Below are positions 1 to 44,972 of a stretch of DNA of 64,000 nt, in pieces (the first letter of the stretch is position 1; each line of letters starts with the position of its first letter). Source of the stretch: Oligoflexia bacterium (lineage in GTDB: Bacteria > Bdellovibrionota > Bdellovibrionia > Bdellovibrionales > Bdellovibrionaceae). The notes beneath the pieces were generated by a model that was not told the DNA's origin, did no database searches, and worked only from the letters and a program-made list of their open reading frames with translations. A program made the translations under genes and the position numbers. The stretch is from assembly GCA_016861345.1 (NCBI GenBank), contig BOLD01000004.1, positions 146,177 to 210,176 on the forward strand. The letters run 5' to 3'.

Positions 1-2
1 GC

Positions 3-1172: not shown

Positions 1173-1259
1173 CAATAATGCGCCGCGTACCGCCAGGGTT
1201 AATTATATTGTATTTAAAGATTCGCTATGACAGGCTTTTTTTCATGGAGGATCAATAAA

Positions 1260-1454: not shown

Positions 1455-1488
1455 CGAAGTCATCGATTTATAATCGCAAAAAACACAA

Positions 1489-1525
1489 ACGCAAGTTTAC
1501 TCATCGAGAAACTTGCGTTTTTTTT
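1489..1525 (+). terminator. Rho-independent terminator after the histone-fold gene
   Basis: ACGCAAGTTT (1489-1498) pairs perfectly with AAACTTGCGT (1509-1518), followed by a T-run to 1525. Confidence 0.8.
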
Positions 1526-1549
1526 CGCCTAAAAAAGGATTTAATAGCA

Positions 1550-1960: not shown

Positions 1961-2051
1961 TGGTAAACTCCAAGGAAAAAGTTGTGTCCTTATACCGCCA
2001 GGGCTGGAAAAATGAAAGGCCCCCCAGAGAAAATGGGCTAGTCCGTTGAAT

Positions 2052-4127
<2,076 letters not shown>

Positions 4128-5792: not shown

Positions 5793-5800
5793 AATCATCC

Positions 5801-29751: not shown

Positions 29752-29779
29752 TTCAATTCTCCTATTTTAGCAAAAATCC

Positions 29780-30301
29780 TTACTCTTTTCCATTTGTTCC
29801 GAGTTCGAACATGTCTACTTCTCCCTCTGGTTCTAATATCTCTTTCTCTGTTTGAGAGTTCGCGACGACGCTTTTTTCACTTTGCCGAAGCAGTAGCCGG
29901 AACAAATCGACTATTTCGTCAAACTCTCCGCGTGAAAGGCTCAGCACATCGCCGTTGGGGAGTTTATACGTTTTGAATATGGGGGGAGTTTCAGAATCGC
30001 CAGTGGGTTTAGTAATCACTTGTGGCGTGTTCCCTGAGCGAAATGCTGCCGAGTTTTGCGATGGTTCCACAAGTGACGACGGAACAGAATACAAAAAAGG
30101 ATCACCTTTTTTTCCAGAGCCACGGAATGCAATAGAGCCTTGCGCTCGAAGCATACGGATAACGTCGATCTTGTCTTTCCTGCGGCCACTAACAGCCGAA
30201 AGTATCGCTGATTCAGATTGAGGCTTGTTGTTCTGGGAAAGAAACTCGACAATTTTCTGTGCGATCTGATCTTGTCGAGAAGTTTCAGGACTTGAGTTCA
30301 T
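29780..30301 (-). CDS. Winged-helix-like protein upstream of the integrase (possible regulator / directionality factor)
   Basis: The segment KIVEFLSQ...ILSAVSGRRKDKIDVIRMLRAQGSIAFRGSGKKGDPFLYSV is paralogous to ORF 40984-41268. The start is uncertain (ATG 30301 or TTG 30331). Confidence 0.55.
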   Translation of the reverse strand: MNSSPETSRQDQIAQKIVEFLSQNNKPQSESAILSAVSGRRKDKIDVIRMLRAQGSIAFRGSGKKGDPFLYSVPSSLVEPSQNSAAFRSGNTPQVITKPTGDSETPPIFKTYKLPNGDVLSLSRGEFDEIVDLFRLLLRQSEKSVVANSQTEKEILEPEGEVDMFELGTNGKE

Positions 30302-30644
30302 CCTGACCGTCCATTCGAGAAACCAGCGCAATGCGCAGGCGGTTACTCAGTTGGAGTCGGGATGCAAATTTGTGGGGCTATCCTTACTCTGAATTCATGT
30401 CGATCCGTCCACAGCGGGGCTTCCAGGCAGTGGTGAAGCCAAGCACGGTCGATCACTTGCGTCTATTGTATCACAAGCCCAACGCAATCCAAAGTGAATC
30501 ATATTTGACTAATTTAGTTCGGGCTAAAGCCATTCCTGTCTTTGTGATATAGATGTACGGGTGATACGAAATCCATTCAGCGCATCGTCTGGCCGGACTT
30601 TAAGCGCATTCAATGATTCCGCACCCTCGAACATTTGATTGAAG

Positions 30645-30699
30645 CCTCCGCTCGTAGATGGGCGAGTGGCCCATCTACACTTGTCCCTATGAGCGGAGG
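30645..30699 (+). promoter_or_regulatory. Nested inverted repeat that would sequester the SD of ORF 30704
   Basis: The outer arms CCTCCGCTC (30645-30653) and GAGCGGAGG (30691-99) are perfectly complementary. So are the inner arms GTAGATGGGC (30654-63) and GCCCATCTAC (30669-78). The 3' outer arm contains the GGAGG SD 5 nt before the ATG at 30704. Confidence 0.6.
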
Positions 30700-30703
30700 T
30701 TTT

Positions 30704-31843
30704 ATGAAAGACATTAAAAATTATGAGCGTTGGATGACTGCGGCCTGCGAGTATTTAACGCCGACGGAATTCAAAGTGTGGGTCGCTTGGTATGGCGACG
30801 CTCCTGGTTTCAGCGCGGGGGCGACCAGAATTTGTGAAAGGGTCCCAGGCTTACGAACGAACCATGCTCGTGCTGCAATTCGCAATATTGCCAAAAAGAA
30901 ATTCATCAAGGATTCAGGGGCAAAGCGAAAAAATGAGCACGGCAGCCCCACGACGGTTTATGTGCTTGGAAGTTTGGACGAGGTAATCGCCCATAATAAG
31001 TCAGTACCCATTGAAAGCGGACAGCTTTCGGAAGATAGCGGACGAACCTCGATCACGAAGAGGCCGGATACTCCAATCAAAGAGGCCGATGATAAAGAGG
31101 ATAGCGGACGAGTGGCCGTCCTCGTACAGAGAAACAAAGAAGAAACAGGAGAAGAACAGTTAAGGCAAAACACTTCCCCCTCTTTTTCTGAATCTCCTCA
31201 AGCGCCGGAGGGGCTTAGCCAAAAGAAAGAAAAAATCTTCCATCCATTAGGTGATGAAGATGCCCACCTTCGACCCTTTGGCGATATTGGTCAAATGCAG
31301 CATGAATTAGATCAATCCTTTTTAAGGGACACAAACCATATTCGCCTTGGTTCTTTGAAAAAGGACGAACTTGAAAAGGTCGTTGCCGATTTGGAATCGA
31401 CCTTGAGCATGAGGCACTTATTTAATGAATGGGGCGATTCTTGTGGTGAACTTTATCCGAGTGAACAAGTCAAAAATTTAGTAATTCAAAAAATTTTGGA
31501 GAACAGATTTAGAGATAAGAGCGGAGTCTTTTCGATAGGCTCAGAGCTTTACTTCAAAGTAGAAGCTACGTTGAAATCTGCACTCTGGCAGCGGCAGTAT
31601 GTTTCCCACGCTCCTAAGCGTGCATGTTCGCCAGAAGTTTGGAAACGATTGACCCGACTCAGACCAATTTTAGATGCAAAGAATCAAATAGAGGTGGCTA
31701 AGACCGATGAATTTATTTCCGAGATTCTTACTGACGAAGAAAAGCAGTTGGCTGAAATAGAGCTAACAGATTCAGATACACAGTTACTTCGAGAATATGG
31801 CCATCTTATTGATCGGCCTTTTTTAGCGTCCCAAAACTCCTGA
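30704..31843 (+). CDS. Hypothetical protein with an N-terminal HTH/wHTH-like region, acidic linker and unknown C-terminal domain
   Basis: The start was chosen at the ATG with GGAGG upstream. The N-terminus YLTPTEFKVWVAWYG...RAAIRNIAKKKFI looks like the DNA-binding module of replication or regulatory proteins. This is an inference. Confidence 0.6.
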   Translation: MKDIKNYERWMTAACEYLTPTEFKVWVAWYGDAPGFSAGATRICERVPGLRTNHARAAIRNIAKKKFIKDSGAKRKNEHGSPTTVYVLGSLDEVIAHNKSVPIESGQLSEDSGRTSITKRPDTPIKEADDKEDSGRVAVLVQRNKEETGEEQLRQNTSPSFSESPQAPEGLSQKKEKIFHPLGDEDAHLRPFGDIGQMQHELDQSFLRDTNHIRLGSLKKDELEKVVADLESTLSMRHLFNEWGDSCGELYPSEQVKNLVIQKILENRFRDKSGVFSIGSELYFKVEATLKSALWQRQYVSHAPKRACSPEVWKRLTRLRPILDAKNQIEVAKTDEFISEILTDEEKQLAEIELTDSDTQLLREYGHLIDRPFLASQNS

Positions 31844-31989
31844 CAAAGTTTATGCTCTTTCAGGCATACGAATCCATAAGCTCTTTTCAAATCATCTTAT
31901 AGAGCCTCCAAGCGCGTTTCAATTTGATCCACTTGGCCGTGAATATCCGACTCATTTTATCCGATAAGTCCAAGTATCTGGAGGTTCGC

Positions 31990-32409
31990 ATGGCAACAGT
32001 AAATGGAAACGCACTGCTTGGCGGGGTTGGAATCGAAGTACCACAAGGATCACATGTCGAAATTATAGAACGAGTGGACGATGGCCTGGCATCTTTCAGA
32101 GTCACATGGCGTACCCCGAATGGACCCATCACGGGCACCATTACGACAAATCTCCTAGATTTTACAGCCGCCGAAATTGCCGAGCATGACCTTCCGACCG
32201 ATGCTAACGGTTTGCCGCTCTATCGAAACTTGCGGGTGAAATATACCGGCCAGTCAAATGTAGCGGTTACTAACGGTGACTTTCTGTTCGTTCAGGACCT
32301 TTGGTACAATGACGACGCGATGGAATGCCGATGCGTCCATCATGGCAATTCTCGTCCAAACACCGACGGTCGTGTTGTCATCCGTCGTGACTTACTGGAG
32401 CGAGCGTAA
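31990..32409 (+). CDS. Small hypothetical protein (two beta-rich, SH3-like halves)
   Basis: GGAGG lies 5 nt before the ATG at 31990. The product is 139 aa. It sits 23 nt upstream of the HEPN-motif gene. Confidence 0.55.
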   Translation: MATVNGNALLGGVGIEVPQGSHVEIIERVDDGLASFRVTWRTPNGPITGTITTNLLDFTAAEIAEHDLPTDANGLPLYRNLRVKYTGQSNVAVTNGDFLFVQDLWYNDDAMECRCVHHGNSRPNTDGRVVIRRDLLERA

Positions 32410-32432
32410 GTAAAATGTGCTCCTGAGGTATC

Positions 32433-33914
32433 ATGGGACACGAGGGAAACGGACTAGAACATTTAGAAGCAGATTGGCTGTATTATAGCCATGACATATC
32501 AAATTTGTCGGCGATTCCTGGTTCAGACATTATTCCCGCACAACTGACTGTGAAGCGAAACGCTAATTTGACCGTGTCCTTGGAAATATCGGGCACCGAC
32601 AAATACCTGTTTCAAAAAGAACAAGCAAAACAAGTGCGAGTTGGGACCGTAAGCGCTAGTGGCTCCATGTCCGGCGAGGTCAAACACGCAGGCTATAAAG
32701 TTGAACTGATCGGCGTAACAGCGGGACGGAAGACTTCCAATTTTTCCGGTGAGTACACCATCCATGCTTCAGCAAGTTCCGTTCGCATTACTCGAAACGA
32801 ATTGGAGCCAAAAAGTGCAATTATATACGCGGTCGGTTGTCCGAAACTTCTTTTTCATCGGGGGACCTGTCGTGACGTGGAGCCTGGTAAAGTCACACTC
32901 AGCCGAAGGCACGTTGGGGACGCCGATCTGGGGTCAGTTGGCGAAATGTCATTTGATTCTTATGGAGAAAGTCGAAGTTCGGCGACAGACTACCTTTTGA
33001 TTAAGAACAAATATGGAACCGTGATCTTCTCTAAAGGCGAACCGTCGTCAGAAACGGAAGAATATTCCCCATGCTATTTACAGTTCATTGATGGAAATGG
33101 AGTCATTGATCGTGATTTTCGCCGAAGATACTTGGAAGCAGTAAGTTTTGCGCTTGGTAAAAGACTGATTGAAATCGGACACTCGACTTTTTCTGAGGAT
33201 CATCAGCCGATTTGCCAAGAATCTCGCACTCCATACTCACTAAATATCAAAAAGGAAGCCGCGATTTATCCACTTCCACCGGCAGAGAATGTTCTGCATG
33301 GCCAATTCCCCAGCGAAGAAGTCTTTTCTCAAATTGTTGATGGCTTCTTAGACAATTATGAATCCTTGGATCTATCGAATGTCATTTGGCCGTTGTGGAT
33401 CGCTCGGCTCATGCCGCTTGGTACGGAGCTTGTTTCATACTCATCATCTTTGGAATCTCTCGTGACGATGTGGTTTAAGAATAAAGAGCCGCAAAAAAAT
33501 GAATATGTTGATAGTGATTTGTTCAAGAGTATCGTCGCGTCCACACATGAGCAGGTATCAAAAGCGTCGATGACGGACGAACTCAAGGCAACTTTGAGTC
33601 GAAAGATTGAATTGGCAAATCACCTCAGTATTGGGGATAAGAAAAAGCGATTTTTTGAATCATTAGGGTTAGGATTCGGAAAAATCGAGAAGAAAACCAT
33701 CGCTTCGAGGAACAAATACGCGCATGGCGGCTCAGTCAAGGACGCAGACACCCGTGATCTGGTCATCCTCGCCCGTTGCTACGAAGCTCTAATAAATCGG
33801 GCGTTACTTGCCGCAATCGGTTCAAAAGGTAATTACGTGGATTACTCTTCGTATGACTTTCCTGAAAGAAACATCTCGGTCGAGATGGCTGGCACCAACT
33901 TTGATAAAAATTGA
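32433..33914 (+). CDS. HEPN-motif protein (candidate abortive-infection/defence RNase; possibly ApeA-like)
   Basis: The C-terminal helical region contains SRNKYAHGG (R426-x4-H431, nt 33708-33725), which fits the RNxxxH HEPN consensus. About 60 further helical residues follow. The N-terminal ~400 aa are beta-rich and unassigned. Confidence 0.6.
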   Translation: MGHEGNGLEHLEADWLYYSHDISNLSAIPGSDIIPAQLTVKRNANLTVSLEISGTDKYLFQKEQAKQVRVGTVSASGSMSGEVKHAGYKVELIGVTAGRKTSNFSGEYTIHASASSVRITRNELEPKSAIIYAVGCPKLLFHRGTCRDVEPGKVTLSRRHVGDADLGSVGEMSFDSYGESRSSATDYLLIKNKYGTVIFSKGEPSSETEEYSPCYLQFIDGNGVIDRDFRRRYLEAVSFALGKRLIEIGHSTFSEDHQPICQESRTPYSLNIKKEAAIYPLPPAENVLHGQFPSEEVFSQIVDGFLDNYESLDLSNVIWPLWIARLMPLGTELVSYSSSLESLVTMWFKNKEPQKNEYVDSDLFKSIVASTHEQVSKASMTDELKATLSRKIELANHLSIGDKKKRFFESLGLGFGKIEKKTIASRNKYAHGGSVKDADTRDLVILARCYEALINRALLAAIGSKGNYVDYSSYDFPERNISVEMAGTNFDKN

Positions 33915-33918
33915 ATCC

Positions 33919-34434
33919 TCACACTGCTTTGTCTTGGCTTACGTCAATCATCTCGCTGCGAATCTCGCCAACTAACTCCGCCATGTGAATCAGAGTGGCG
34001 GCTATAAATTCCGGTTGGAATAGGTTAACGTCGCCAACGATTTCGAGTAGGAGCTTCACAGTGTTTCGGCTGGTAGGTTTGGGAACAATTCTGATCGGGG
34101 CGCGGTCATTGACGTGCAGATAGAATGCGATTCGGTAAAGTAATGCGCTCGCGTCCGTCTCGGTTGTTTCGCAAACCTCCGCCGCCACCCTAAAGATATT
34201 TGAGTACGTGCTATTGCTCGTCGAAGGGATGCAAATATCAATCGCGTGACTATCCCAAAGAAACGCATACCTGATACCTGTCGGATGAATGTGCTTGGCG
34301 GCTTCAAGGTCAAGCTGGAGATCGCCAAGTGTGTTATCAAGGACGGCTTCAAACGCGCATGGTTTACGTTTGTCCATATATATCAGCCTGTCATTCTTAA
34401 TATTGAGTGAATGTGTACTGACCATTGATGACAC
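33919..34434 (-). CDS. Hypothetical cytoplasmic protein, last gene of the minus-strand operon
   Basis: A 171-aa ORF with no signal peptide. The start is uncertain (34434 overlaps the upstream gene by 38 nt; an alternative Met is at 34377). Confidence 0.45.
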   Translation of the reverse strand: MSSMVSTHSLNIKNDRLIYMDKRKPCAFEAVLDNTLGDLQLDLEAAKHIHPTGIRYAFLWDSHAIDICIPSTSNSTYSNIFRVAAEVCETTETDASALLYRIAFYLHVNDRAPIRIVPKPTSRNTVKLLLEIVGDVNLFQPEFIAATLIHMAELVGEIRSEMIDVSQDKAV

Positions 34435-35470
34435 AAATTTCGCCGTAAACTTTGCCGGTTCCGCCTCCGACCAGGTTTATGTACTTCGATCCAGAATAAC
34501 ACACTGGGGGAAGTTGTGGCGCACTGGCTGCGTCCGGCATCGTAGGGTCAAGGCCCATGAGGTATCGCCGCCAGTTGTAATCGAAGAATTTTGAAGCATC
34601 GACGACGTGGTTAACAAAAAACTTCCAATCTCCCCCTTGTTGCAGCTCTTTTCCGTTTTTGTCATAGGACTGCCAGAGTTGCTCAAACTCAGACCTTGTA
34701 ATTTGACCGAAATTAAATTGCGTTCTTATCAGTTTCGCTTCTGTGGTAAGCGCCGCCATGACTGCTACATCGAGAACCGGATCAAAATAAATGTTCCCAT
34801 TTCGACGCTCAGTGCAAAATTCAAAAGGCGTAGTTCCTGTGGGACAGAATGAAAATCCCCAATCCGCCACGTCGTCATAGCGGGTTAGAAACCAGTTGCC
34901 GTTTCCATCGTTCGTGTAGCTGAAAATCTCGTTGGGCACGAAATCGGCGGAGCTTGCCGGAAAATTCGAGAAGTCTAAGAGAAGTTGTTTCCCGTAGTCT
35001 TGTGGATTGACGGGTTCCGTTTCGTGATCTTCACGGGCATAAAAGCATGAGACATCTCTTTGATAGACGACGTTGCTGTCTTTGTCTTCCCCTAGAGTAA
35101 TCCTGCGAAATTGTCCCGTGCTCGCATCAAAATCGAGATAATAACGATCATCACGATAAGAATAGTAGTTGCTCGATGCCTTAAGTGCCATGCTTGGAAA
35201 ATTTGGCTGTGGAACGCAGTTGACGTTATGCTTGCGGCGCTTTTCCGTTGAGGCTTCATAGTTGGTCAGCGCAATTTGATCCGTCAAGCACGCCTTGGAG
35301 CTTTCTAGCCAATACTGATTGAACTTCTTGAGATCGCCATAGGCATCGCGCTGATAATAAATGCCTTTACAGTCCGCCGCTGTTTGCGTAGCGCTTGATT
35401 CATTTTTTGATTCATCGTTGCACGAGCAAAGAAGAGTTGTGGCGATCAATAAAACGTACCGCCTGTCCAT
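34397..35470 (-). CDS. Putative lipoprotein (unknown function)
   Basis: MDRRYVLLIATTLLCSC lipobox. GAGG lies 5 nt upstream of the ATG at 35470. Multiple Cys residues and an aromatic-rich mature part are present. Confidence 0.65.
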   Translation of the reverse strand: MDRRYVLLIATTLLCSCNDESKNESSATQTAADCKGIYYQRDAYGDLKKFNQYWLESSKACLTDQIALTNYEASTEKRRKHNVNCVPQPNFPSMALKASSNYYSYRDDRYYLDFDASTGQFRRITLGEDKDSNVVYQRDVSCFYAREDHETEPVNPQDYGKQLLLDFSNFPASSADFVPNEIFSYTNDGNGNWFLTRYDDVADWGFSFCPTGTTPFEFCTERRNGNIYFDPVLDVAVMAALTTEAKLIRTQFNFGQITRSEFEQLWQSYDKNGKELQQGGDWKFFVNHVVDASKFFDYNWRRYLMGLDPTMPDAASAPQLPPVCYSGSKYINLVGGGTGKVYGEICVINGQYTFTQY

Positions 35471-35477
35471 ACACACC

Positions 35478-36188
35478 TCATTCCTTCCAAAGAGCTTCGA
35501 CCTCTTTCTTTTTCTTGCGTTTCTTGTCTAGCTCTTCTTTTTCTTTCTTTTGAGAAGCAAGTTGACGCTCTTTTTCTTTCAGCTCTTCAACTCGCTTTTT
35601 TTCTTCATGGGCCTTGTTTTCGGCGATGACTTCTTTTCGTTTTTGGTTCCACCACGTCTCGTATTTTGACGACCCTAGAAGACCTTTTTTTGAATAGATA
35701 ATCGCCGGAGCCATGAAGTCAGTGCGACTTCCATCGTAAAAGACCCAGCCGACTTCCATATTAGGAACCCCGTTAAATGATCCGGCCTTTTTGTCAACAT
35801 AGCCTTGCAGGTTAAGTCCGGTGACTTCCTCAAAACCGCCATCTGCACACTTTTTGCCGTTGGCGATCTTCATACGCCCCTCGGTTCCGACGCCGGTTGT
35901 GCGCAACGTGTAGCTGTTCAGATAAAAAGCTCCACAACCGGATCGTTCACGCACTGTGCCTTCGTCCAAGACAATATCGCCAAGACAGGCGACCGATTTC
36001 GGCCAAAGTGACTCTTGCTTGCGGTAGTCGCCGGTCGGCACCTGAGCCACTGCAAAGTCACAACGTCCGTCTTTTTCGACAACCGCCTTGAGTTTTCCCA
36101 GGTGCGAGTCCAAGTCGTCAGCGTTCGCCAACCCTCCACATAAAATAACAAAAATAAAAATGACGTTATTTCGCAAGATAGTCGTCAT
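35478..36188 (-). CDS. Secreted protein with a Lys/Glu-rich coiled-coil tail
   Basis: Signal peptide NNVIFIFVILCGGLANA. The C-terminus is ...EEKKRVEELKEKERQLASQKKEKEELDKKRKKKKEVE. Confidence 0.65.
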   Translation of the reverse strand: MTTILRNNVIFIFVILCGGLANADDLDSHLGKLKAVVEKDGRCDFAVAQVPTGDYRKQESLWPKSVACLGDIVLDEGTVRERSGCGAFYLNSYTLRTTGVGTEGRMKIANGKKCADGGFEEVTGLNLQGYVDKKAGSFNGVPNMEVGWVFYDGSRTDFMAPAIIYSKKGLLGSSKYETWWNQKRKEVIAENKAHEEKKRVEELKEKERQLASQKKEKEELDKKRKKKKEVEALWKE

Positions 36189-37158
36189 ATTTTTCTGCCT
36201 TTGCTAACTTCAAAACTTCGTTCATATCCACGGTGATCTTAAACAGAACCATGCCCTGATCGTTCTTTGGTTGAGGTTCAATTTTGGCGACATAAAGCAT
36301 GAGATAGCCCCAAACTTTCGCGCCTTCATTTTTATCAATGTGCGTGAGCCAGCGAGGTTTTTTTGATTGAATACTTTCGTCGTCGTTAGCTTCGCGTTGA
36401 GCTAGGTCCTCAAGTTCACCCGCTGAGTCCGGCGCGTTAGGTGTGGGCCGGATGTCGTAAGGTTCAATTTTTTTCCCGATAGCATCGTGCATTTTTGCGG
36501 CTAAGGCCGGAGACACATTCGGTCCCATTGTCTGAAAGAGGTTCAGGAGTTTTTCATTTGGCATCATGAGAAAAGTCGGAGCTTGAGCCGATTGATTGTT
36601 ACCAGTGAATCGAGCCGCTGAGATGCGATTAGTAGAAGTGTCAAGATGAACTGGGTTTCCTGATCGGGCCTGAATGCGGTCTAAGGTCGGAGCGTAAACA
36701 AACGCCGAATAAATTTTCCCAGAGTCTTCTTTGATTTCCGAAAAGAACCAGTCCGCAGGGGCGCGAAATTGTTTGTATGATGAACTTGCGTCGATATGAG
36801 CTTCGAGTAGGTTTGCATTATACTCTGGAACTTTCCATTTGACGGTTTTTTCTAACCGGCCTAACTCGCTGACCTCATCTGGCCTTGTCATGGAAAAGAG
36901 AACACCGAGACCGTTACTTAAACCGTTCAAGACAGAAAATTTTCTGATTTTTTCAGCTTCAACCTTCGGCTTGCCCTTTACGTCCGGCATACGAATGGAA
37001 ATCACATACTCGATAGGGCCGCTATTCCACTGAGTCGGAAATTGCTTGAACCTAACTTGTGGCTCAACGGGTTTCACTGGCTCCGGTATCGGCGGCTCCG
37101 AGGCGCAGCCCGACAATATGAAAGATGCGATTGCGAAAATACGAGTTAGGTTTTTCAT
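36166..37158 (-). CDS. Putative lipoprotein (unknown function)
   Basis: MKNLTRIFAIASFILSGC lipobox. Its start overlaps the stop of the upstream HTH gene (ATGA). Confidence 0.7.
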   Translation of the reverse strand: MKNLTRIFAIASFILSGCASEPPIPEPVKPVEPQVRFKQFPTQWNSGPIEYVISIRMPDVKGKPKVEAEKIRKFSVLNGLSNGLGVLFSMTRPDEVSELGRLEKTVKWKVPEYNANLLEAHIDASSSYKQFRAPADWFFSEIKEDSGKIYSAFVYAPTLDRIQARSGNPVHLDTSTNRISAARFTGNNQSAQAPTFLMMPNEKLLNLFQTMGPNVSPALAAKMHDAIGKKIEPYDIRPTPNAPDSAGELEDLAQREANDDESIQSKKPRWLTHIDKNEGAKVWGYLMLYVAKIEPQPKNDQGMVLFKITVDMNEVLKLAKAEKYDDYLAK

Positions 37159-37649
37159 TTGCTGCTTCCTTTCGGGTCGTCAGTGGTTTCGTCAGCGTCG
37201 GCAATGTCCTCTATCGTTAACTTCACCCACTTTGAAAAAAGTTTTTTTGTGGGGAGTTTGTCGAACTTGGTCGATTGCTGATACCCGAAGAGATAATCAA
37301 GACTCACGCCATAGTGCTTGGCGATTGCGAGCAAATGACCTGGGTCGATTTGTTTTTTGTCGGGCTTCAGATAGCCGGTAAAGGTTGATAAAGGAATCTG
37401 GCAGGCCTTCGCGGCGGATCTCGCAGATTCTCCGTTCTTTTCCATAAGTGATTTTAAGATCGAATGTAGTTTCATACCCGCTATGCTTCGGGTTTCATTA
37501 GAGTTTTCAGAAGGCGGGTTCACGAAGCCGCTCACTATGTCCGACATCTCGTCACGGACCAAACGATTGAGTTCCTCAGAAGCCTTTTCTGTGGCCGTGT
37601 TCGTCGCATTAGCATTTGGTCCCGATACAGGACGATTACGAGAAGTCAT
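37155..37649 (-). CDS. XRE-family HTH regulator with a disordered N-terminal tail
   Basis: LKSLMEKNGESARSAAKACQIPLSTFTGYLKPDKK...LLAIAKHYGVSLDYLFG is a Cro/C1-type HTH. Confidence 0.75.
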   Translation of the reverse strand: MTSRNRPVSGPNANATNTATEKASEELNRLVRDEMSDIVSGFVNPPSENSNETRSIAGMKLHSILKSLMEKNGESARSAAKACQIPLSTFTGYLKPDKKQIDPGHLLAIAKHYGVSLDYLFGYQQSTKFDKLPTKKLFSKWVKLTIEDIADADETTDDPKGSSK

Positions 37650-37813
37650 ACATTCATCTCCAACCGCGACCTAAACAAGAACCTACAGTCTGTCTCAAAC
37701 TGGACTTGCCCGTCGTGGTACAAAGTTCGGTCGCTATGTCTAGCTTTACGGTCGGAACAGTGGCGCTTTAACTGGTAAAGTGACATTTCCGCTGGGTTTG
37801 GTAGACTTTGAGG

Positions 37814-38617
37814 ATGCGACTGTTCCGTTTCAATCCAACAATCAGAGAGGCTAACAAGTATCTTTCCAAGACGGTCGATGACCTTTTGAAAAAACACGGC
37901 GGCGTCTCGAATGAAGACTTTGAACGCGATCTTGTCGCCGCGACCGGCATCGGATGGAAGCAGGTCAAGAATTACAAAAATCATCCAAAGCCAGGCGAAC
38001 GACTCAAAGATAACAGCGTAGTCATAAAGTATATTCGTGAATGTCGAGCGAAGGACACCACTCGGAAAGTGCGCTCTTATGCCTTGGCCATTGGAGGTAT
38101 CGCGGTCGTCTGCATTTTTCTGTATCGTTACGTGACCGCGCCAAGAACTATTGAATCGTTTGCGGTTCACGAAGTCGCTGAGCCGTTGCCGCCAAGCCAC
38201 GATAAAATTGAAACAAGATTGTTCCTTGAGGTTGGCGGTTGGATTTTGCGTCTTGGTCCAATCAAACATTCAAAAGTTCCTCTCGAAAAATTCGTTTGCT
38301 CAAAACTCTCCTCGGTCGGCCAGACAAATTGCTCATTTTCAGAAAGAAGGCCGAACGGCCTTTTTCAAGTCACGTTGCTCATGGACGGCGACTTCGTCAG
38401 GAAATACTCGGTCATGACATTGGACTCTGTTGAGATCGAATCTCTGCGAAAACAGCTTGCTAACCGAGTTGACAGGGAAATCGCATCTGTAGATCCAAAT
38501 CCCTTGTCACAGAAGCAATTCAAGGTTGGCGACGAATCACTTGAAATTCTATCGAACCCCGCAGGGCCAGGTTCACGGCCCATGCTGACCGTTTCAGTGT
38601 CCTTCGCGTCACTTTGA
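37814..38617 (+). CDS. Possible HTH / single-pass membrane protein (coding strand uncertain)
   Basis: The composition is balanced. An HTH-like segment (FERDLVAATGIGWKQVKNYKN) is followed by a basic stretch and then a TM helix (YALAIGGIAVVCIFLY). It is fully overlapped by two minus-strand ORFs that have coupling signals, so this call is tentative. Confidence 0.45.
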   Translation: MRLFRFNPTIREANKYLSKTVDDLLKKHGGVSNEDFERDLVAATGIGWKQVKNYKNHPKPGERLKDNSVVIKYIRECRAKDTTRKVRSYALAIGGIAVVCIFLYRYVTAPRTIESFAVHEVAEPLPPSHDKIETRLFLEVGGWILRLGPIKHSKVPLEKFVCSKLSSVGQTNCSFSERRPNGLFQVTLLMDGDFVRKYSVMTLDSVEIESLRKQLANRVDREIASVDPNPLSQKQFKVGDESLEILSNPAGPGSRPMLTVSVSFASL

Positions 38618-38720
38618 TTTGTCCCTTTTCCATCTGCTTTTGATGACACTGAAAGCGAATGCGCGGCCTCGGTGTTTTCAGGCACTTGCGAGGCTGATTT
38701 TTTCGACCGTTTGGAAGACA

Positions 38721-39347
38721 TTAGCGCCTCCCTTTCAAAATCCTCTCAACGCTCGTTTTCCCAATTTCGAGTGTCCGGCTGATTTCGCGGATACTCTTTC
38801 CGTTGGCCCTGAGGGTCTTCACTTGTTCAACGGTCTCATCTGGCAGGGGCTTACGACCGCATGACCAACCAGTGTCAGCGGCGGTCATCTTTTTTACAGC
38901 GAGCGCGGTTTTGATTCGTTCGCTGATTAGACTTTTTTCGAGTTCGGCGATAGCGCCCAGAATTTGAGTCACGGCACGGCCAACCGGAGTCCCCAAATCA
39001 ATCGACTCACGCAAGGAAATTAAAGTGACCCCGTATCCGTCTAATTCGTGCAGTAGATTGAGCAAGAAGCGGGTATCTCTCGCCAAACGATCCAGAGCAA
39101 AAATAATGACGACCTTGAACTTGCCCATACGAGCATCCTTGACGAGTTGGTCAAGGGCCTTCCGGCGATCCGCTGAGCCAGTGATCCGGTCAACGTACTC
39201 GCCGACGAGCTGAAATTCACGGTTGGTCGCTACGCCACGGATCGGAACCAGTTGATGCTCTGGCTCTTGTTTCAGAAGTGTTGAAACACGGGCATAGGCG
39301 ACTGCCTTCACCTGGTTCACGCTGCCTCCTTGATAAGAAGGCGGCAT
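38721..39347 (-). CDS. Small serine recombinase (resolvase/invertase family)
   Basis: AVAYARVSTLLKQE (catalytic Ser), VIIFALDRLARD, and the C-terminal HTH GKSIREISRTLEIGKTSVERIL. Confidence 0.9.
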   Translation of the reverse strand: MPPSYQGGSVNQVKAVAYARVSTLLKQEPEHQLVPIRGVATNREFQLVGEYVDRITGSADRRKALDQLVKDARMGKFKVVIIFALDRLARDTRFLLNLLHELDGYGVTLISLRESIDLGTPVGRAVTQILGAIAELEKSLISERIKTALAVKKMTAADTGWSCGRKPLPDETVEQVKTLRANGKSIREISRTLEIGKTSVERILKGRR

Positions 39348-39676
39348 GTGATCGTGGGTTTGGTCTGGTTCAGCACCTTTTCAACGTATTCTGCTGAACT
39401 AAGTTCCGCGCATACAGACTTCCACGAAACATTAGTGCGACAGACGCTTTTTAGCACAACGGAGTGAATGGAGTCGACATCTGCGCCATCTTGGATGCGA
39501 GCCATGATTGAGTTTTCAAGTTCAACCAGTTCGGCTTCAGCAAGCTCCAAGCGCTTTTTCTGAGCGTCATGGCTTCGACGCAAGCGCAGGACCTTTTCGA
39601 CCTCTTGGTTTGTTACGGTTGCCCCTTTAAGGGCTAAGCTTCCTTGGGTTCTCATAGGACCTCCGTTGGTTGACAT
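39317..39676 (-). CDS. Hypothetical protein upstream of and overlapping the resolvase
   Basis: A 119-aa ORF with a coiled-coil-like centre (KKRLELAEAELVELENSIMARI). It overlaps the resolvase start by 31 nt. Confidence 0.5.
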   Translation of the reverse strand: MSTNGGPMRTQGSLALKGATVTNQEVEKVLRLRRSHDAQKKRLELAEAELVELENSIMARIQDGADVDSIHSVVLKSVCRTNVSWKSVCAELSSAEYVEKVLNQTKPTITCRLLIKEAA

Positions 39677-39700
39677 TACAAATACAGCTTAACGCAATGC

Positions 39701-39738
39701 GTATTAATAATCAATACTAGGGTATTGAAAATCAATAT
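39701..39738. promoter_or_regulatory. Operator-like array of four alternating GTATTGA-type half-sites in a divergent intergenic region
   Basis: The half-sites are GTATTA (39701), CAATAC (39712), GTATTG (39722) and CAATAT (39733), at ~10-11-bp spacing. The central TCAATAC-TAGG-GTATTGA (39711-39728) has perfect 7-bp arms. Confidence 0.6.
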
Positions 39739-39759
39739 AACTGCCGATAACGTATAGGA

Positions 39760-39966
39760 ATGAGTCAGCCCAAGTTTCGACATCCAAAAGAGATGAGCAG
39801 TCGCAAGGATCGTGTGGCGCTTTCAACCCGCGTCCTAGATAAAACCAAGAGGCTTTTAGAGAAGGCGGCGGAAAAGCATAAAATTTCTCTCTCCGAACTC
39901 TGTTCAAACGTGTTGGACGAGTATGCGGAATGGCTCGAAAAAGAAGATGAGCAAAAGAAGAGGTAG
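39760..39966 (+). CDS. Ribbon-helix-helix (CopG/MetJ-like) protein
   Basis: 68 aa. RVALSTRVLDKTKRLLEKAAEKHKISLSELCSNVLDEY fits the strand-helix-helix layout. The tail is acidic. Confidence 0.65.
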   Translation: MSQPKFRHPKEMSSRKDRVALSTRVLDKTKRLLEKAAEKHKISLSELCSNVLDEYAEWLEKEDEQKKR

Positions 39967-39975
39967 GAAGGCGCG

Positions 39976-40815
39976 ATGTTCAACTTATTGATGTTCAACG
40001 TAGATTGGCCTTCGGGCAGAGTCAAAATCCCGATAGCACGGATGTTTGAGTACACTGAGTCCGAAATAGCCAATTCATTTCGGAACGGAAGCGACCTCTT
40101 GCTTGATCGTCTAATTTCTTTGCCTTGTCTTTTCTGTGTTGAGGGTGTGGCGGACGAAGTAGCTTATGTCGGCCAGATCAATCGAGCACGTGTCGTCGGT
40201 AAAGAAGTATCTCTAGAAGTCAGCTTTGACACTGACATACCGCCTCTCCATAACCGTATGATTCACGCAAATCGCACTGGATTAGACATGCCAGAAGAAT
40301 TCGAGTTTTCGCGGAATCATTGGGCCGTGAAGGACGTGGACCTTTACCGCTTCTTACTCCGAAATGTGCGTCCCCGCCGCCAACGCCCTGTCGTGTTCCA
40401 AATCTCCGAACACGAGAATATCGAACCGACTCTCGTATCAGCAATGATGCCGTTTGATGCGAGTTTCAACGAAGTTTATACGGCTATTCGTGAAGCTACT
40501 GAAAATGTAGGGCTGAAATGTAGAAGAGCCGATGATATTTGGGAAAACCCAGCGATCATCCAAGATGTCGTTTCTCTTATCGACCGCTCCCGTGTCATCG
40601 TTTGCGACTGCACTGGTCGCAATCCGAACGTGTTTTATGAGGCTGGCATTGCGCATACCCTTGGACGGGAAGTAATCCTAATTACTCAGAGTGAGCACGA
40701 CATCCCGTTTGATTTACGTCATCTTCGCTATGTCCGCTATCTCAACAATGGCGAAGGACGACGTGTGCTTGTTGCCGCCCTCCAAAGTAGGATGCAAACG
40801 ATCCTCGGACACTGA
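39976..40815 (+). CDS. Two-domain protein: unknown N-terminal domain plus a nucleoside-2-deoxyribosyltransferase/TIR-like Rossmannoid C-terminal domain
   Basis: AGGAAGG SD, with the start 9 nt after the RHH stop. The C-terminal half is VSAMMPFDASFNEVYTAIREA...RADDI...IIQDVVSLIDRSRVIVCDCTGRNPNVFYEAGIAHTLGREVILI. It shows the ...D-x-T/S-G...N-x-x-x-E-x-G-x-A-x-x-x-G-K/R-x-V pattern with Glu222 (nt 40639-40641). Confidence 0.6.
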   Translation: MFNLLMFNVDWPSGRVKIPIARMFEYTESEIANSFRNGSDLLLDRLISLPCLFCVEGVADEVAYVGQINRARVVGKEVSLEVSFDTDIPPLHNRMIHANRTGLDMPEEFEFSRNHWAVKDVDLYRFLLRNVRPRRQRPVVFQISEHENIEPTLVSAMMPFDASFNEVYTAIREATENVGLKCRRADDIWENPAIIQDVVSLIDRSRVIVCDCTGRNPNVFYEAGIAHTLGREVILITQSEHDIPFDLRHLRYVRYLNNGEGRRVLVAALQSRMQTILGH

Positions 40816-40983
40816 ATCCGGCTAAATAGCCGCCGCTCTGACACTTTAGGCTACCGGAGTTGGGAACCGGCAAATTCGGAACTGGCTGGGAACAACCTTA
40901 CACCCATACATGCACGCGATCAGCGCCACTCAAAAAACTGAATGAACATCGGGAACGACAATCTTCTAGTTAACGGAGGTTGT

Positions 40984-41268
40984 ATGAATCTGGTTAGTTT
41001 CTTTTCTGAGCACGGTGATAATGATCTTTTCTTTCTGGCCCGAAATGAGCGAAAGCCTCGATTGCGGGACATTGTTATTGAGGCCATGCGTTTGCTCGCC
41101 CGTGGGCCGCTGACAAAGCTGGAGCTTCAAAAGCTCGTCAAAATTCGCCGCAAGACATTCATTCGTTTGCTGGCCGGTTTGGTCCAAGCCGGTGTTGTAA
41201 TTCGCACGGGAACCGGCAAGCGCCGCGATCCGTTTCGCTATATGTTGGCTGACCACTATCGCGGCTAA
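40984..41268 (+). CDS. Small winged-helix protein (paralogue of ORF 29780-30301)
   Basis: GGAGG lies 4 nt before the ATG at 40984. LTKLELQKLVKIRRKTFIRLLAGLVQAGVVIRTGTGKRRDPFRYML shares the RRK...G-x-GK-x-x-DPF-x-Y signature with the other ORF. Confidence 0.6.
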   Translation: MNLVSFFSEHGDNDLFFLARNERKPRLRDIVIEAMRLLARGPLTKLELQKLVKIRRKTFIRLLAGLVQAGVVIRTGTGKRRDPFRYMLADHYRG

Positions 41269-41401
41269 TCCACTAACTGAAAACGGCTATCGGGGAAATA
41301 GCCCATATGGGTAGTAAACCCCCGTTGAGTTTTTCCGGTGAAGTCACTATGACCGACTCCCCAAAAATTTTTCTGGAAAAATTCTGGGAAAATAGAGGGT
41401 C

Positions 41402-41462
41402 GGGAACATGAATCGTAGGTTGGAATCAGAAAATGCTCCGATTCCAGCAACTGGGGCATTTT
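41402..41462 (+). repeat. Left copy of an imperfect direct repeat flanking the ImmA cassette
   Basis: It shares the exact 12-mer GGGAACATGAAT (41402-41413) with 43354-43365. Co-linear blocks follow: TGGAA, AGAAAAT, CTCCG, CCAGC, GCATTTT. Confidence 0.7.
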
Positions 41463-42555
41463 ACATCAAAGATAATTGCTCAGGGCTATTGGAGTCAGGA
41501 CTCAATATCAGAAGATCTTTAAGAGATTCAAAATCCTGTAGGTTAAGTCCTAAGTTTTCCGAACATTCTTTTCCAGACAATTCGTTCAAGCAGTTTTCTA
41601 TGATCTTAGGGGGATCGAAAGAAGGCTCTTCGGGCTCATTGCCTCTGTAAGCGTTAAGCAAAATGTTTGCGCGTCGATATGTCGGCTCAGACATGCAGTT
41701 AAGATCGAAAGCCCTTCGAATAAGTGCTGCTAAAGAAACTCCCCAACGTCGCTTCAGTCCGATGTAAGCATCCATGTTAAAGCGCCGAGGACATTCAGCC
41801 AGAAAAGCTTCTCTTGGTAACAGGAATGCGCTCGCAAATCTGTTTGCCTGTCTTTCTAATTCAAAGTCTCCCGCCGTAACATCATGGTGCATGAATAGGT
41901 GGCCAAGCTCGTGAGAGGCATCGAACTTAATTCTGGATGTTGAAGTCTTCGGAACCAGAAAAATTAAAGGTCTGCTTCCGTTCCAGACGGAAAAAGCGTC
42001 TACGCCCTTACAGTCCTCTGGAATGAATGAAACAAGGATGCCTTTGCTCTCCAAAACCTTCATCAGGTTTGGAATCGGACCGAGTCCCATATTCCACGAG
42101 CTTCTCACTCTGCCAGCTAGGCGCTCAATATCTTCATCGCTTCGCACCGTGGAAGGTTGAATAGAGCTAACTTGCTCCGCAGGTAAATCAAACTCTTCTT
42201 CAATCTGATTTATAAGCTCACATTGTATGGTGCCGAGAGCGAGAATTTTACGACGTTCTCTTTGGCTCGTACTTCTTAGACTTCTGAAATGACAAGCCTC
42301 TAAACGAATCACAGATGTCTGCAAAGGCTTACTGAAAAACGCCGGTTTAATACCCAAAGCAAGACTCATGTGCGCAATTGTCTTCGCATCAGGTCTGATG
42401 GTTTTATCTTCGAACTGAGTGATCGAACTGGGGGTCTTCCCAATTTTCTCCGCCAACTCAGCTTTAGTCATACCTCTCATCTCTCTCGCCAATGTTAAGC
42501 GAGTAGATACAAAGTTCTGCGAGATTAGAGATAAATCGAAATGGTTCATACTCAT
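41461..42555 (-). CDS. XRE-HTH / ImmA-IrrE (COG2856) zinc-metallopeptidase fusion protein
   Basis: The N-terminal HTH is LAREMRGMTKAELAEKIGKTPSSITQFEDKTIRP. The central HELGHLFMH is an HExxH motif in the context typical of ImmA/IrrE peptidases. Confidence 0.85.
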   Translation of the reverse strand: MSMNHFDLSLISQNFVSTRLTLAREMRGMTKAELAEKIGKTPSSITQFEDKTIRPDAKTIAHMSLALGIKPAFFSKPLQTSVIRLEACHFRSLRSTSQRERRKILALGTIQCELINQIEEEFDLPAEQVSSIQPSTVRSDEDIERLAGRVRSSWNMGLGPIPNLMKVLESKGILVSFIPEDCKGVDAFSVWNGSRPLIFLVPKTSTSRIKFDASHELGHLFMHHDVTAGDFELERQANRFASAFLLPREAFLAECPRRFNMDAYIGLKRRWGVSLAALIRRAFDLNCMSEPTYRRANILLNAYRGNEPEEPSFDPPKIIENCLNELSGKECSENLGLNLQDFESLKDLLILSPDSNSPEQLSLM

Positions 42556-43232
42556 AGAGTTTCAATCTTAGACTTGTCTTTCTTACGAGTCACCACAAAG
42601 TCAGGAACTTCAACTTCAGGATGCAGTTGTGCTGCTGTATCAGTGGCAAATCCGTCGGCCATAGTTTTCATATAAATCTGATGTGTGCGTTTCCATGATG
42701 AAATTCTACCGTTACTCACTTCGCCAGGAGCACACAGATACACGGCTTCAAGACCCGTTTCAGGATTTCCCAAATGAGCAATAACCCAATTCTTGATAAA
42801 TTCTTGCTCTTGATCTTCTGAATCGAAAATGGACTTACCAGTTTCAACATCTATCAGAAACGGTGTGTTGTTCTCTTCGGCCAACTTGGGAGCAGTGTTG
42901 GAATTGTGAGGGAAGCAACGTGAAATATCTTGAGACGCAAACTTGCCCACCCTGTAAGACGCGAATACGCGATTGTTGATGTGCATTCGAAATGTGAGAC
43001 CGTCGTAAATTTTTACGTCTTGATCCTCAACGTGCACGTTGTCTGCAAAAGACTCTTTATAGTTTTTCTTGGTGTAGAAATGGACGCCGTAACCGAAAAT
43101 GTTGGAGTTATCTCCGTCCTCTTCGTCGTATTTGCTTTGCGCTGTTAAATACGACTTTTGAAGTGCGGCAATAATAGCCGCTTGCTGATGTTCAGTGATA
43201 AGATCGTCCGGGACCTGATTGTTAGCAGACAC
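42552..43232 (-). CDS. Hypothetical protein translationally coupled to the HTH-ImmA gene
   Basis: A GTG start lies 4-5 nt after AGGAGG. The stop overlaps the downstream start (ATGA). The product is 226 aa with no motif I can name. Confidence 0.65.
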   Translation of the reverse strand: MSANNQVPDDLITEHQQAAIIAALQKSYLTAQSKYDEEDGDNSNIFGYGVHFYTKKNYKESFADNVHVEDQDVKIYDGLTFRMHINNRVFASYRVGKFASQDISRCFPHNSNTAPKLAEENNTPFLIDVETGKSIFDSEDQEQEFIKNWVIAHLGNPETGLEAVYLCAPGEVSNGRISSWKRTHQIYMKTMADGFATDTAAQLHPEVEVPDFVVTRKKDKSKIETL

Positions 43233-43353
43233 TTTCCCTCCTGCCGAAGTTATTATTTCATCGTTAATAATTAAGTGAAATTGTCATTCAATCAAGAATT
43301 TTTTAGTGAAATGATCGAAATAATTATTGATATTAAGCGTCATGGTGATGTTT

Positions 43354-43580: not shown

Positions 43581-44972
43581 ATGGCAAAAACACGTACAGA
43601 ATCAGATACCTTTGGTGAAATCGCAGTTCCTTCTGAATATTATTGGGGCGCTCAAACGCAAAGATCCCTTATAAACTTTGCAGTTGGAACTGATTTGATG
43701 CCCCTTCCGCTTATTCGCGCCTTTGGGCATTTAAAAAAATCAGCGGCTATTGTGAATTGTGATTTAGGCCGATTGCCTCAAGATCTTTGTCAGCCAATTG
43801 TTCAGGCCTGTGATGAAATAATATCTGGAAAATTAGATCAGAACTTTCCTTTAGTTGTTTGGCAGACCGGCTCCGGAACGCAAACCAACATGAATGTGAA
43901 CGAGGTTATCTCAAATCGTGCGATCGAGATTTTGGGTGGAGTGATGGGATCAAAAAATCCAGTACATCCGAATGATCATGTGAACATGGGACAAAGCTCA
44001 AATGATTCATTTCCAACAGCCATGCATATTGCGGCTGTGATTGAAATCGAAGATTTACTCCTACCGGCCCTCAAGAGACTGCACACAGAATTAAAAAATA
44101 AAGAAAATGTGTTTTCAAAAATAATCAAAGTCGGTCGGACACATCTAATGGACGCAACGCCATTGACGTTGGGTCAGGAATTTTCTGGCTATCGAATGCA
44201 GGTTGAATTGGGAATTGAGAGAGTGGAGCAAACATTAGCCCGGCTAAAAAACCTTGCCCAAGGGGGAACTGCCGTTGGAACAGGACTTAACACACACCCT
44301 GAATTTGCGGATAGAGTGGCGAAAAAAATCAGCGAATTGACAGGAAAGAAATTTATTTCCGCTCCGAATAAATTTGAGGCCCTGGCTTCGCATGACGCGC
44401 TCGTTTTTGCTCACGGCGCTTTGAAAACTTTGGCTGCAAGTCTCATGAAGATCGCGAATGATATTCGCTGGCTGGGCAGTGGGCCGAGATGTGGGATTCA
44501 AGAGTTAATTCTTCCAGAAAATGAACCGGGCTCATCAATCATGCCTGGAAAGGTCAATCCAACTCAGAGCGAGTCGATGACAATGGTCTGTTGCCAAGTT
44601 TTTGGAAATGATGTTGCCATTAATATGGGTGGTGCAAACGGAAATTTTGAGCTGAATGTTTTTAAGCCGCTGATCATCTTTAATTTTTTACACTCAGTCA
44701 GATTGCTTACAGATAGTGTGAATGGCTTTGTTGACCACTGTCTTCTTGGCCTGAAAGCGAATGAAAAAAATATTGCGAAAAATTTAGATCAAACATTAAT
44801 GCTTGTCACTGCTTTAGCTCCGCATATCGGCTATGATAAGGCCGCAAAAATTGCAAAAAAAGCTCATGCTGACGGTACAAGCTTACTTGAAGCGGGGCTA
44901 CAGCTTGGCTTTGTCACAGAGACTCAGTTTAAGACTTGGGTTAAGCCAGAGGACATGCTTTCCCCATCTTAA
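43581..44972 (+). CDS. fumC: Class II fumarate hydratase
   Basis: Signature [13 protein letters not shown]. The 463 aa have fumarase/aspartase-family layout. Confidence 0.96.

Follow-up and report, generated by a model that had tools for sequence, protein, structure and literature searches.

RosmerTA toxin-antitoxin (TA) systems were named in 2022, in a report that a delta-rmrA mutant was unobtainable and that the system protects against phage (bioRxiv 10.1101/2022.05.11.491447), and later work has widened their description (PMC10440598, PMC12795458). As an ImmA-protease antitoxin, RmrA is a hub for many unrelated toxins, 58% of them in toxin-first order (PMC10440598). In Gordonia phage Kita, the pair RmrT(D5)/RmrA(D25) has been validated both as a TA system and as a narrow-spectrum phage defence (PMC10440598). 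The only Rosmer toxin with a known target is the pneumococcal RipA (Spr1630), which binds the hydrophobic pocket of DnaN, where suppressors also map, and which RipB neutralises only with ClpX present (PMC12795458). Here we describe a pair of overlapping genes, denoted rmrT and rmrA, in a 64,000-nucleotide stretch of contig BOLD01000004.1 (Oligoflexia bacterium, assembly GCA_016861345.1); we call this whole stretch the window, and all positions follow its numbering. The DNA was obtained from a bioreactor metagenome; wastewater and freshwater runs contain related copies. We consider it very likely that the pair is a two-gene RosmerTA-type TA or abortive-infection module, toxin first, at the far edge of a tRNA-Ser island. 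The kind of system is already described, and the window pair is a new, divergent member of it.

The locus shares with described RosmerTA systems its two co-directional overlapping genes, an antitoxin of about 360 amino acids in which an XRE helix-turn-helix (HTH) is joined to an M78 peptidase, a toxin gene upstream, and a setting in defence or mobile islands. It differs in its Bdellovibrio-like lineage and in its toxin, which lies below detection by every PADLOC RmrT model. An earlier reading of this DNA from the sequence alone (hereafter the sequence-only reading) had proposed that the HTH-ImmA/IrrE protein controls the upstream gene as its effector or toxin. This proposal is supported, at the level of sequence, by matches of the downstream protein to RmrA models, by the membership of its partner in the RmrT family, and by the pairing of the two genes.

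We scanned both proteins against Pfam, PADLOC, NCBIfam and PHROGs. The 364-amino-acid product of rmrA matches 14 PADLOC models of RmrA, the RosmerTA antitoxin, the best being PDLC03955 (1.7e-88), where residues 10-310 align with positions 15-315 of the 371 in the profile. Its Pfam domains are HTH_3 (residues 23-74, 7.9e-09) and Peptidase_M78 / IrrE-like (residues 169-282, 6e-21), so that it has the N-terminal XRE HTH fused to an M78/COG2856 peptidase that is looked for in a RosmerTA antitoxin, and its HExxH motif is intact. Across seven aligned partner proteins from homologous loci (43-92% identity) HELGH, E234, Q236 and A237 are invariant, and the M78 peptidase is therefore very probably active. 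The capP (4.5e-19) and capH (3.6e-07) models match one half of the protein each, far more weakly than the RmrA models. In NCBIfam the protein matches the spr1629-family repressor/antitoxin (2.6e-46, residues 15-309) at 158 bits, against an equivalog cut-off of 335, and it is therefore not a Spr1629 orthologue. The match in PHROGs is phrog_2439, 'transcriptional regulator' (8.6e-82). Only two kinds of solved structure in PDB were recovered by its sequence, CapP (7t5t) as the best match and, weakly, the 434 repressor HTH.

The 226-amino-acid product of the upstream gene has no direct match in Pfam, PADLOC (E > 0.1), NCBIfam or PHROGs; a P53 match with an E value of 0.075 was treated as noise. 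A word-indexed homology search of 5.8 billion proteins returned only two close relatives, 88% and 46% identical, the latter, from a Pseudobdellovibrio metagenome-assembled genome, being the nearest named relative. An exhaustive profile search of 1.84 billion cluster representatives, for which the query profile was made of the window protein and these two relatives, gave 215 proteins at E <= 0.001, of which 99 reach E <= 1e-10. For the most part the matches are 205-250 amino acids long and near full length, and these proteins therefore form a real, diverse and unnamed family, whose clusters carry only 'hypothetical protein' labels and come from metagenomes. A word-indexed search with an 89-sequence profile of the family returned only 21 proteins, all of them unnamed, and a scan of genome contigs with the family profile returned the Pseudobdellovibrio genome only.

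The family leads to RosmerTA through its more distant members. We aligned 89 members (alignment A2) and scanned each separately: 59 match the PADLOC RmrT model PDLC03941 (best 2.9e-11), two match PDLC03935 and one matches PDLC03929. The match can run near end to end, as in P0008, where residues 16-191 align with positions 20-200 of the 234 of PDLC03941. A hidden Markov model built from 85 distant members, with the window protein and its close relatives left out, in turn finds the window protein at 184 bits (E 1e-58, residues 10-222). The 226-amino-acid protein is thus, transitively and by sequence, a divergent member of the recognised Rosmer toxin family, and we refer to it as RmrT. Scans of all 89 members against Pfam and NCBIfam found no family, and there was no match when the window protein was compared by tblastn with plasmids and phages, or two other members with plasmids.

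The contigs of ten family members, 22-100% identical to the window RmrT, were surveyed for their gene order. In nine of the ten, which lie in unrelated contexts, RmrA is encoded immediately after the toxin gene or in overlap with it: the window locus (also L019), L001/L002, L003/L004, L006, L007/L008, L009-L011, L012-L015, L016 (at a contig end, where the pairing was read by eye) and L017. The association between the 226-amino-acid family and HTH-COG2856 fusions, which the sequence-only reading had put forward for survey, is therefore found in nearly all of the sampled members. The paired genes encode HTH_3 + Peptidase_M78 proteins of 355-377 amino acids and overlap the toxin stop or lie <=3 nucleotides past it, and PDLC03955 is the best RmrA model for seven of eight partner proteins. 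Identities of toxin and antitoxin to the window pair fall together (88/92, 46/65 and about 24/44%), as expected of a co-inherited pair. The window locus has every sequence-level feature of RosmerTA that we looked for, the membership of its toxin coming through the profile bridge only.

The neighbours of the pair differ from locus to locus. In L006 these are a TIR-STAND protein (TIR_2-AAA_22-DUF7779), a DEAD/ResIII helicase, a YjiV_N protein and a Helicase_C+MZB protein (defence-type genes at 1-5277 and 11352-12735), and in L009 a Ser/Thr kinase-WD40 protein and a giant TIR/nSTAND3 protein (3947-8656). Elsewhere we found SMEK_N (L012), an AAA+/DUF4276 pair with an HNH protein (L016), a DNA methylase (L001) and an integrase (L007). 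The 88%-identical copy of rmrTA (L003, 1-13477, and L004) lies in another element, with serine recombinases, an HTH protein and two family-A DNA polymerase genes (545 and 846 amino acids, the latter with a weak 3'-5' exonuclease match), which is evidence for movement of the module between mobile elements. The differing defence and mobile neighbours suggest that the two genes form an autonomous mobile module and are not a regulator confined to a single element.

These contexts bear on a different explanation, in which the HTH-M78 protein is an immunity regulator of the island (a fused ImmR/ImmA, or a phage repressor/antirepressor) that controls excision or transfer, and the 226-amino-acid protein is an accessory such as an exclusion factor or anti-repressor. 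The module does lie in an island at tRNA-Ser that also encodes a large serine recombinase and a resolvase, its 88%-identical copy sits in a mobile element with recombinases and family-A polymerases, phrog_2439 is a phage family, and ImmA/ImmR and IrrE/DdrO are the founding members of the peptidase/HTH pairing (PMC10440598, PMC12828697). We nevertheless find this explanation improbable. rmrTA is the last unit of the island before the housekeeping fumarase gene fumC (43581-44972), at the island edge and about 13 kb from the large serine recombinase; in L006, L009, L012 and L016 it stands beside non-mobile or purely defence-type neighbours with no called integrase; RmrA models match over their full length and far better than stand-alone capP (1.7e-88 vs 4.5e-19); and the partner family matches an RmrT toxin model.

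ImmR/ImmA of ICEBs1, IrrE/DdrO of Deinococcus and CapH/CapP of CBASS (cyclic oligonucleotide-based antiphage signalling systems) likewise combine an XRE HTH with an M78/COG2856 peptidase, and there stress-triggered proteolysis relieves repression. There, however, two separate proteins supply the HTH and the protease, and what they regulate is an operon further downstream (integrase, repair or CBASS genes), whereas the window RmrA joins both in one protein, whose sole conserved partner is encoded by the 226-amino-acid gene 5' of it. The conserved neighbourhood of rmrTA includes no CBASS, repair or excision genes. An ImmR/ImmA-type element immunity module was rejected on the fused reading frame, the distance of about 13 kb to the recombinase and the recurrence of the pair in loci without a called recombinase, and a CapH/CapP regulator of CBASS was rejected on the partial, weak capP and capH matches and the lack of a CBASS gene among the scanned neighbours.

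We modelled RmrT with AlphaFold2. From a 3-sequence alignment the predicted local distance difference test (pLDDT) score was 42, and only the 89-sequence alignment gave a confident model, with a mean pLDDT of 87.5 and a predicted template modelling score of 0.79. The model begins with two long helices (residues 14-34 and 43-63), followed by a three-stranded sheet segment (73-96), helices at 113-122 and 139-145, and three further strands (148-188). Foldseek, which the sequence-only reading had proposed for this protein, gave no match at E <= 0.001 in PDB or among the viral structures of BFVD. The best match was EcoRV (E 0.028, template modelling (TM) score 0.27, root-mean-square deviation 13 A). 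A PD-(D/E)xK nuclease fold (EcoRV, HincII, Hjc, Pithovirus exonuclease) was rejected because no TM score exceeded 0.27 and no acidic residues are conserved; in the 89-member alignment no acidic residue of the structured core is >=55% conserved. A profile search against PDB sequences gave noise only, with GNAT at E 0.8. The conserved polar residues of RmrT are Y28, N42, R82, R/K94, N110, H153, N156 and C167, and its invariant residues are mostly structural G, F, P and W. Beyond a variable linker, a conserved C-terminal tail (residues about 203-222; 42567-42626) reads P-x-E-x(3-5)-V-x-(R/K)-K and then charged residues. The pLDDT of this tail is about 83 despite the lack of secondary structure, and it might serve in docking, act as a degron or make the contact to RmrA.

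The window toxin is acidic (isoelectric point 5.2) and has no transmembrane or hydrophobic segment, its highest 19-residue Kyte-Doolittle hydropathy being 0.74, and in only 1 of 159 family members does the hydropathy exceed 1.6. RmrT is therefore not a membrane toxin. In this it departs from the toxin of phage Kita, which is membrane-localised and depolarises the membrane (PMC10440598), although the two systems share an ImmA-protease antitoxin and a toxin without detectable homologues (PMC10440598). RipAB (Spr1630/Spr1629) of Streptococcus pneumoniae resembles the window pair by description: it is toxin-first, has an XRE HTH + ImmA-like antitoxin and has a soluble toxin without a known domain (PMC12795458).

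The chemistry of RmrT also raises the question of which protein does the harm. Conceivably the 226-amino-acid protein is a sensor, an adaptor or a protease substrate that modulates RmrA, and any harmful activity lies in the peptidase itself. The RmrT family shows no recognisable catalytic residues and no fold of a known toxin, and its invariant residues are largely structural. For some COG2856/Xre pairs the metalloprotease has been described as the 'toxin', and a report on a Brucella ZnMP/HTH-Xre pair (PMC10538038) discusses the protease in that role. In the characterised Rosmer systems, though, it is the other gene that encodes the toxin, the HTH-peptidase being essential or acting as antitoxin (bioRxiv 10.1101/2022.05.11.491447; PMC10440598; PMC12795458), and a non-enzymatic toxin that blocks a hub, such as RipA or SocB, needs no catalytic residues. 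We therefore hold this arrangement to be quite improbable, and retain RmrT as the putative toxin and RmrA as its predicted antitoxin.

A short motif in RmrT offers a possible target. The loop between helices 113-122 and 139-145 is of lower confidence than the rest and varies in length across the family. A short linear motif is kept where this loop starts, and over the 89 members its columns are Q (80%), L (61%), any residue and L/F (91%), followed by P/D, a G that is often missing, a hydrophobic residue and E/D; the composition was also taken over 159 family members. QLx[LF] is present in 43 of the 89, and the family includes QLSLF, QLDLF, QLTLF, QLCLF, QLSLPF, QLTLPL, QLSLGL, QLTLGL and QLKLDL, all exact look-alikes of clamp-binding motifs in bacteria. 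The pLDDT of the motif loop is 71-73, below that of its flanks. The consensus of beta-clamp ligands is QL(S/D)LF, with considerable variation tolerated (PMC9690074), and SocB of Caulobacter acts on the same clamp pocket as RipA (PMC12795458, PMC9690074).

The guess at the target that we prefer, attractive but tentative and on balance unlikely, is that the RmrT family of the PDLC03941 type is a non-enzymatic toxin that plugs the hydrophobic cleft of the beta sliding clamp via this flexible QLxL(x)[LF] loop and thereby poisons replication. RipA binds the clamp pocket, and a clamp-binding-like QLxL(x)[LF] motif is present in most members of the family, although the window motif, PFLIDVE, differs in having no Q. 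Two observations weigh against the clamp: the Q is missing from the window protein and its relatives (SLDLF, NLELF), and a large subgroup has a non-canonical QLWLPG plus a hydrophobic residue. So short a motif might simply pack against its own domain, and the support for clamp binding is thin. If RmrT does bind the clamp, the Bdellovibrio-like clade (PFLIDVE, SLDLF, NLELF) may have a variant motif tuned to its own clamp, and clamp targeting would be a recurrent strategy of Rosmer toxins, as in RipA, convergent with SocB. The SocAB system of Caulobacter is a possible analogy, since SocB is non-enzymatic and binds the clamp cleft via a clamp-binding motif (PMC9690074). SocA, however, is a ClpXP adaptor and not an HTH-peptidase, the analogy depends on a short motif only, and the 226-amino-acid protein had no SocB match in any search made.

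The arrangement of the two genes (Table 1) is conserved along with their products. When the window sequence was re-read, the coordinates of the sequence-only reading, its AGGAGG-GTG start, the ATGA overlap, the HTH and HELGH motifs and the positions of the repeats discussed below were all borne out. The GTG at 43232 is the earliest in-frame start possible past the preceding stop, and the start position is kept in two relatives, as ATG in L003 and GTG in L002. The Shine-Dalgarno sequence is likewise kept: L003 also has AGGAGG, and L002 has a G-run in its place. An overlap or a gap of <=3 nucleotides between toxin gene and rmrA was found in L001, L003, L006, L007, L009, L012, L016 and L017. For the candidate promoter, the hexamers and their 16-nucleotide spacing are kept as TTGATC/TAATAA in L003 and TTGTTT/TAATAT in L002; a consensus scan chose an overlapping alternative, TTCACT-16-AATAAT at 43279-43252. 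Downstream, a 64-amino-acid open reading frame (41265-41459, minus strand) begins after a 1-nucleotide gap from the rmrA stop and lies ahead of the hairpin 41303-41285; it may be a chance reading frame or a third small gene of the operon. The consensus scan found no more terminator-like hairpins than in shuffled sequence.

The sequence-only reading had also suggested that two copies of AGTGAAAT in the promoter region, at 43274-43281 and 43305-43312, are operators. This pair alone is not significant, because the window contains 5 copies where 4.5 are expected, and because simulation at matched composition yields an exact 8-mer direct repeat within 40 nucleotides in 14-29% of regions. We rejected the exact 8-mer AGTGAAAT as the operator unit, as it is absent in that form from L003 and L002 and only its CACT/CT(T/A)AA part is kept in relatives. 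The two copies cover the middle and proximal of three CT(T/A)AA sites, which in the window are exactly 31 bp apart (C at 43337, 43306 and 43275). A palindrome, TTAATTATTAA (43274-43264), encloses the proximal site and, like that site, overlaps the -10 hexamer. The middle site falls directly 5' of the -35 hexamer, in a register shared with distant loci.

The phasing recurs across the nine upstream regions that we compared. CTTAAT is present in eight of them, and a best-shared 6-mer that common appears in 0.5% of simulations (P about 0.005). CT[TAG]AA sites 31 +/- 1 bp apart occur in six of the nine loci, giving 9 pairs against 0.15 expected (0/3000 simulations), for a motif that was defined after seeing the data, a set in which the window and L003 are not independent, and a 31-bp spacing that the sequence-only reading had already observed. 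No spacing bin other than 31 +/- 1 bp is enriched for these sites in the nine loci, and the phasing is reproduced in four divergent loci (L006, L007, L009 and L012). What stands of the operator proposal is therefore the phased sites, which are conserved across loci, with the CT(T/A)AA core and not the full 8-mer as their unit. With a spacing of three helical turns the sites would share one face of the DNA, which would fit cooperative binding and autorepression by RmrA. RmrA may autoregulate through direct-repeat operators in this unusual phased array.

These results leave little room for the view that the pair is a decaying or non-functional remnant whose regulatory repeats arose by chance. 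Its attractions are that the 8-mer pair alone is within chance and that the window clade has lost the Q of the loop motif. Both reading frames and the catalytic residues are intact, however, the ribosome-binding site, start position and overlap are conserved, near-identical or related copies occur in several independent metagenomes, and the phased sites recur in divergent loci, all of which makes a remnant very improbable.

We propose that a RosmerTA-type module at this locus would work as follows. One promoter would transcribe rmrT and rmrA together, with translational coupling fixing their ratio. RmrA dimers or oligomers would use the HTH to bind the phased sites, of which the proximal one overlaps the -10 hexamer, and would so autorepress the operon. 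RmrA would hold RmrT, soluble in the cytoplasm, inactive. Phage infection or stress might then inactivate or titrate RmrA, possibly via its own peptidase or a host AAA+ protease, just as pneumococcal RipAB depends on ClpX, and the freed RmrT would arrest the cell, in abortive infection or addiction. Candidate substrates of the peptidase would be RmrA itself, the toxin tail or a phage protein.

Several points weigh against the assignment to RosmerTA and have to be set beside the evidence above. The window protein, like P0003 and P0004, the two members nearest to it, never reaches E < 0.1 with any PADLOC RmrT model, so that the assignment of the window protein to RmrT is transitive, through the profile bridge, and not direct. 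P0167 (locus L018), whose upstream side is cut by the contig end, has no RmrA gene downstream. Toxicity, neutralisation and phage defence are ascribed to the pair and to its toxin family by analogy with the family literature, the local support for phage defence being a neighbourhood rich in defence and mobile-element genes. The promoter and the one-transcript operon structure are predicted from sequence. The usual targets of XRE HTH proteins are inverted repeats, but the CT(T/A)AA sites conserved here are direct ones.

Table 1. Features of the rmrT-rmrA locus, in window coordinates.
Feature	Positions	Strand	Details
Three CT(T/A)AA sites, candidate RmrA operators	43270..43337	minus	CTTAAT 43337-43332, CTAAAA 43306-43301, CTTAAT 43275-43270
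Candidate sigma-70 promoter	43268..43295	minus	TTGATT 43295-43290, 16-nt spacer, TAATTA 43273-43268
Shine-Dalgarno AGGAGG	43237..43242	minus	4 nt 5' of the GTG start
rmrT-like gene, 226-aa putative toxin	42552..43232	minus	Open reading frame; GTG start 43232-43230, TGA 42554-42552
RmrT loop motif PFLIDVE, residues 124-130	42843..42863	minus	Aligns with family Q-L-x-[LF]-(P/D)-(G)-[LF]-E; degenerate here
ATGA start/stop overlap	42552..42555	minus	rmrA ATG 42555-42553 over rmrT TGA 42554-42552
rmrA gene, 364-aa XRE-HTH + M78 (ImmA/IrrE) Zn-peptidase, predicted antitoxin/repressor	41461..42555	minus	Open reading frame and domains
HTH DNA-binding domain of RmrA, residues about 15-74	42334..42513	minus	Pfam HTH_3, HTH_19, HTH_31
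HELGH zinc-binding/catalytic motif, H215-H219	41899..41913	minus	Invariant in seven aligned partners
Terminator-like hairpin, possible operon end	41285..41303	minus	About 160 nt 3' of rmrA; consensus scan only

The window locus itself is an ordinary accessory defence or TA module. A complete Rosmer-type module of this kind is probably invisible to defence finders based on hidden Markov models, its toxin being below every PADLOC RmrT threshold. Judging from the model matches, PADLOC-style rules that need both RmrT and RmrA would probably leave the window RmrA as an orphan. Complete systems may therefore lie behind "orphan RmrA" calls in environmental genomes, Bdellovibrio-like ones among them, and the 89-sequence alignment would recover them. 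The RmrT family also gains a confident model, an alpha/beta domain without a significant PDB or BFVD match and with a conserved basic tail, in which Y28, R82, R/K94, N110, H153, N156, C167 and W180 are conserved residues of interest. Two testable hypotheses follow from the analysis: clamp binding via the QLxL loop, and autoregulation via CT(T/A)AA sites phased 31 bp apart.

The integrative island that contains rmrTA spans about 15 kb (28060-43330) and starts at a tRNA-Ser(TGA) gene (28099-28188) directly after the seryl-tRNA synthetase gene. A large serine recombinase of 563 amino acids (28060-29751, minus strand) with Resolvase and Recombinase domains overlaps the tRNA-Ser with its 3' end, and the island is filled by about 15 kb of mostly unknown genes. 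The GC content is 0.46-0.52 across the island and 0.41-0.44 beyond fumC, and the right boundary of the island is defined by this GC shift only. We found no att-like direct repeats of >=13 bp between the end of the tRNA-Ser gene and the rmrT side. Serine integrases need no long att repeats, and the missing repeat is therefore not evidence against the island.

Several other genes of the island are of interest. A 493-amino-acid protein (32433-33914, plus strand) has a C-terminal HEPN_Apea domain, with a Pfam match of 2.2e-05 that is just above the cut-off and no PADLOC match; a 161-amino-acid reading frame (31924-32409) lies directly 5' of its gene. This protein may be a further defence or abortive-infection RNase of the island. 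Three consecutive reading frames at 34397-37158 (minus strand; 359, 236 and 330 amino acids) have hydrophobic, signal-peptide- or lipoprotein-like N-termini (ILSGCASE, LLCSCNDE) and no family matches, and the middle one has a highly charged K/E-rich tail. An XRE HTH protein is encoded at 37155-37649. Some 2 kb from rmrTA there is a small serine recombinase of 208 amino acids (38721-39347, minus strand) with Resolvase and HTH_7 domains; small serine recombinases are proposed, in a 2025-26 preprint (10.1101/2025.10.07.681051), as markers of defence cargo. Between this gene and a winged-helix-like reading frame of 108 amino acids (40942-41268) lies the gene of a 279-amino-acid protein (39976-40815, plus strand). 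No Pfam family was found for this protein, and its C-terminal 100 residues match the PADLOC TIR 'Effector' model (9.4e-09) and phrog_3634 (1.8e-18), which makes it a candidate for a single-gene TIR-like or nucleotide-processing defence protein.

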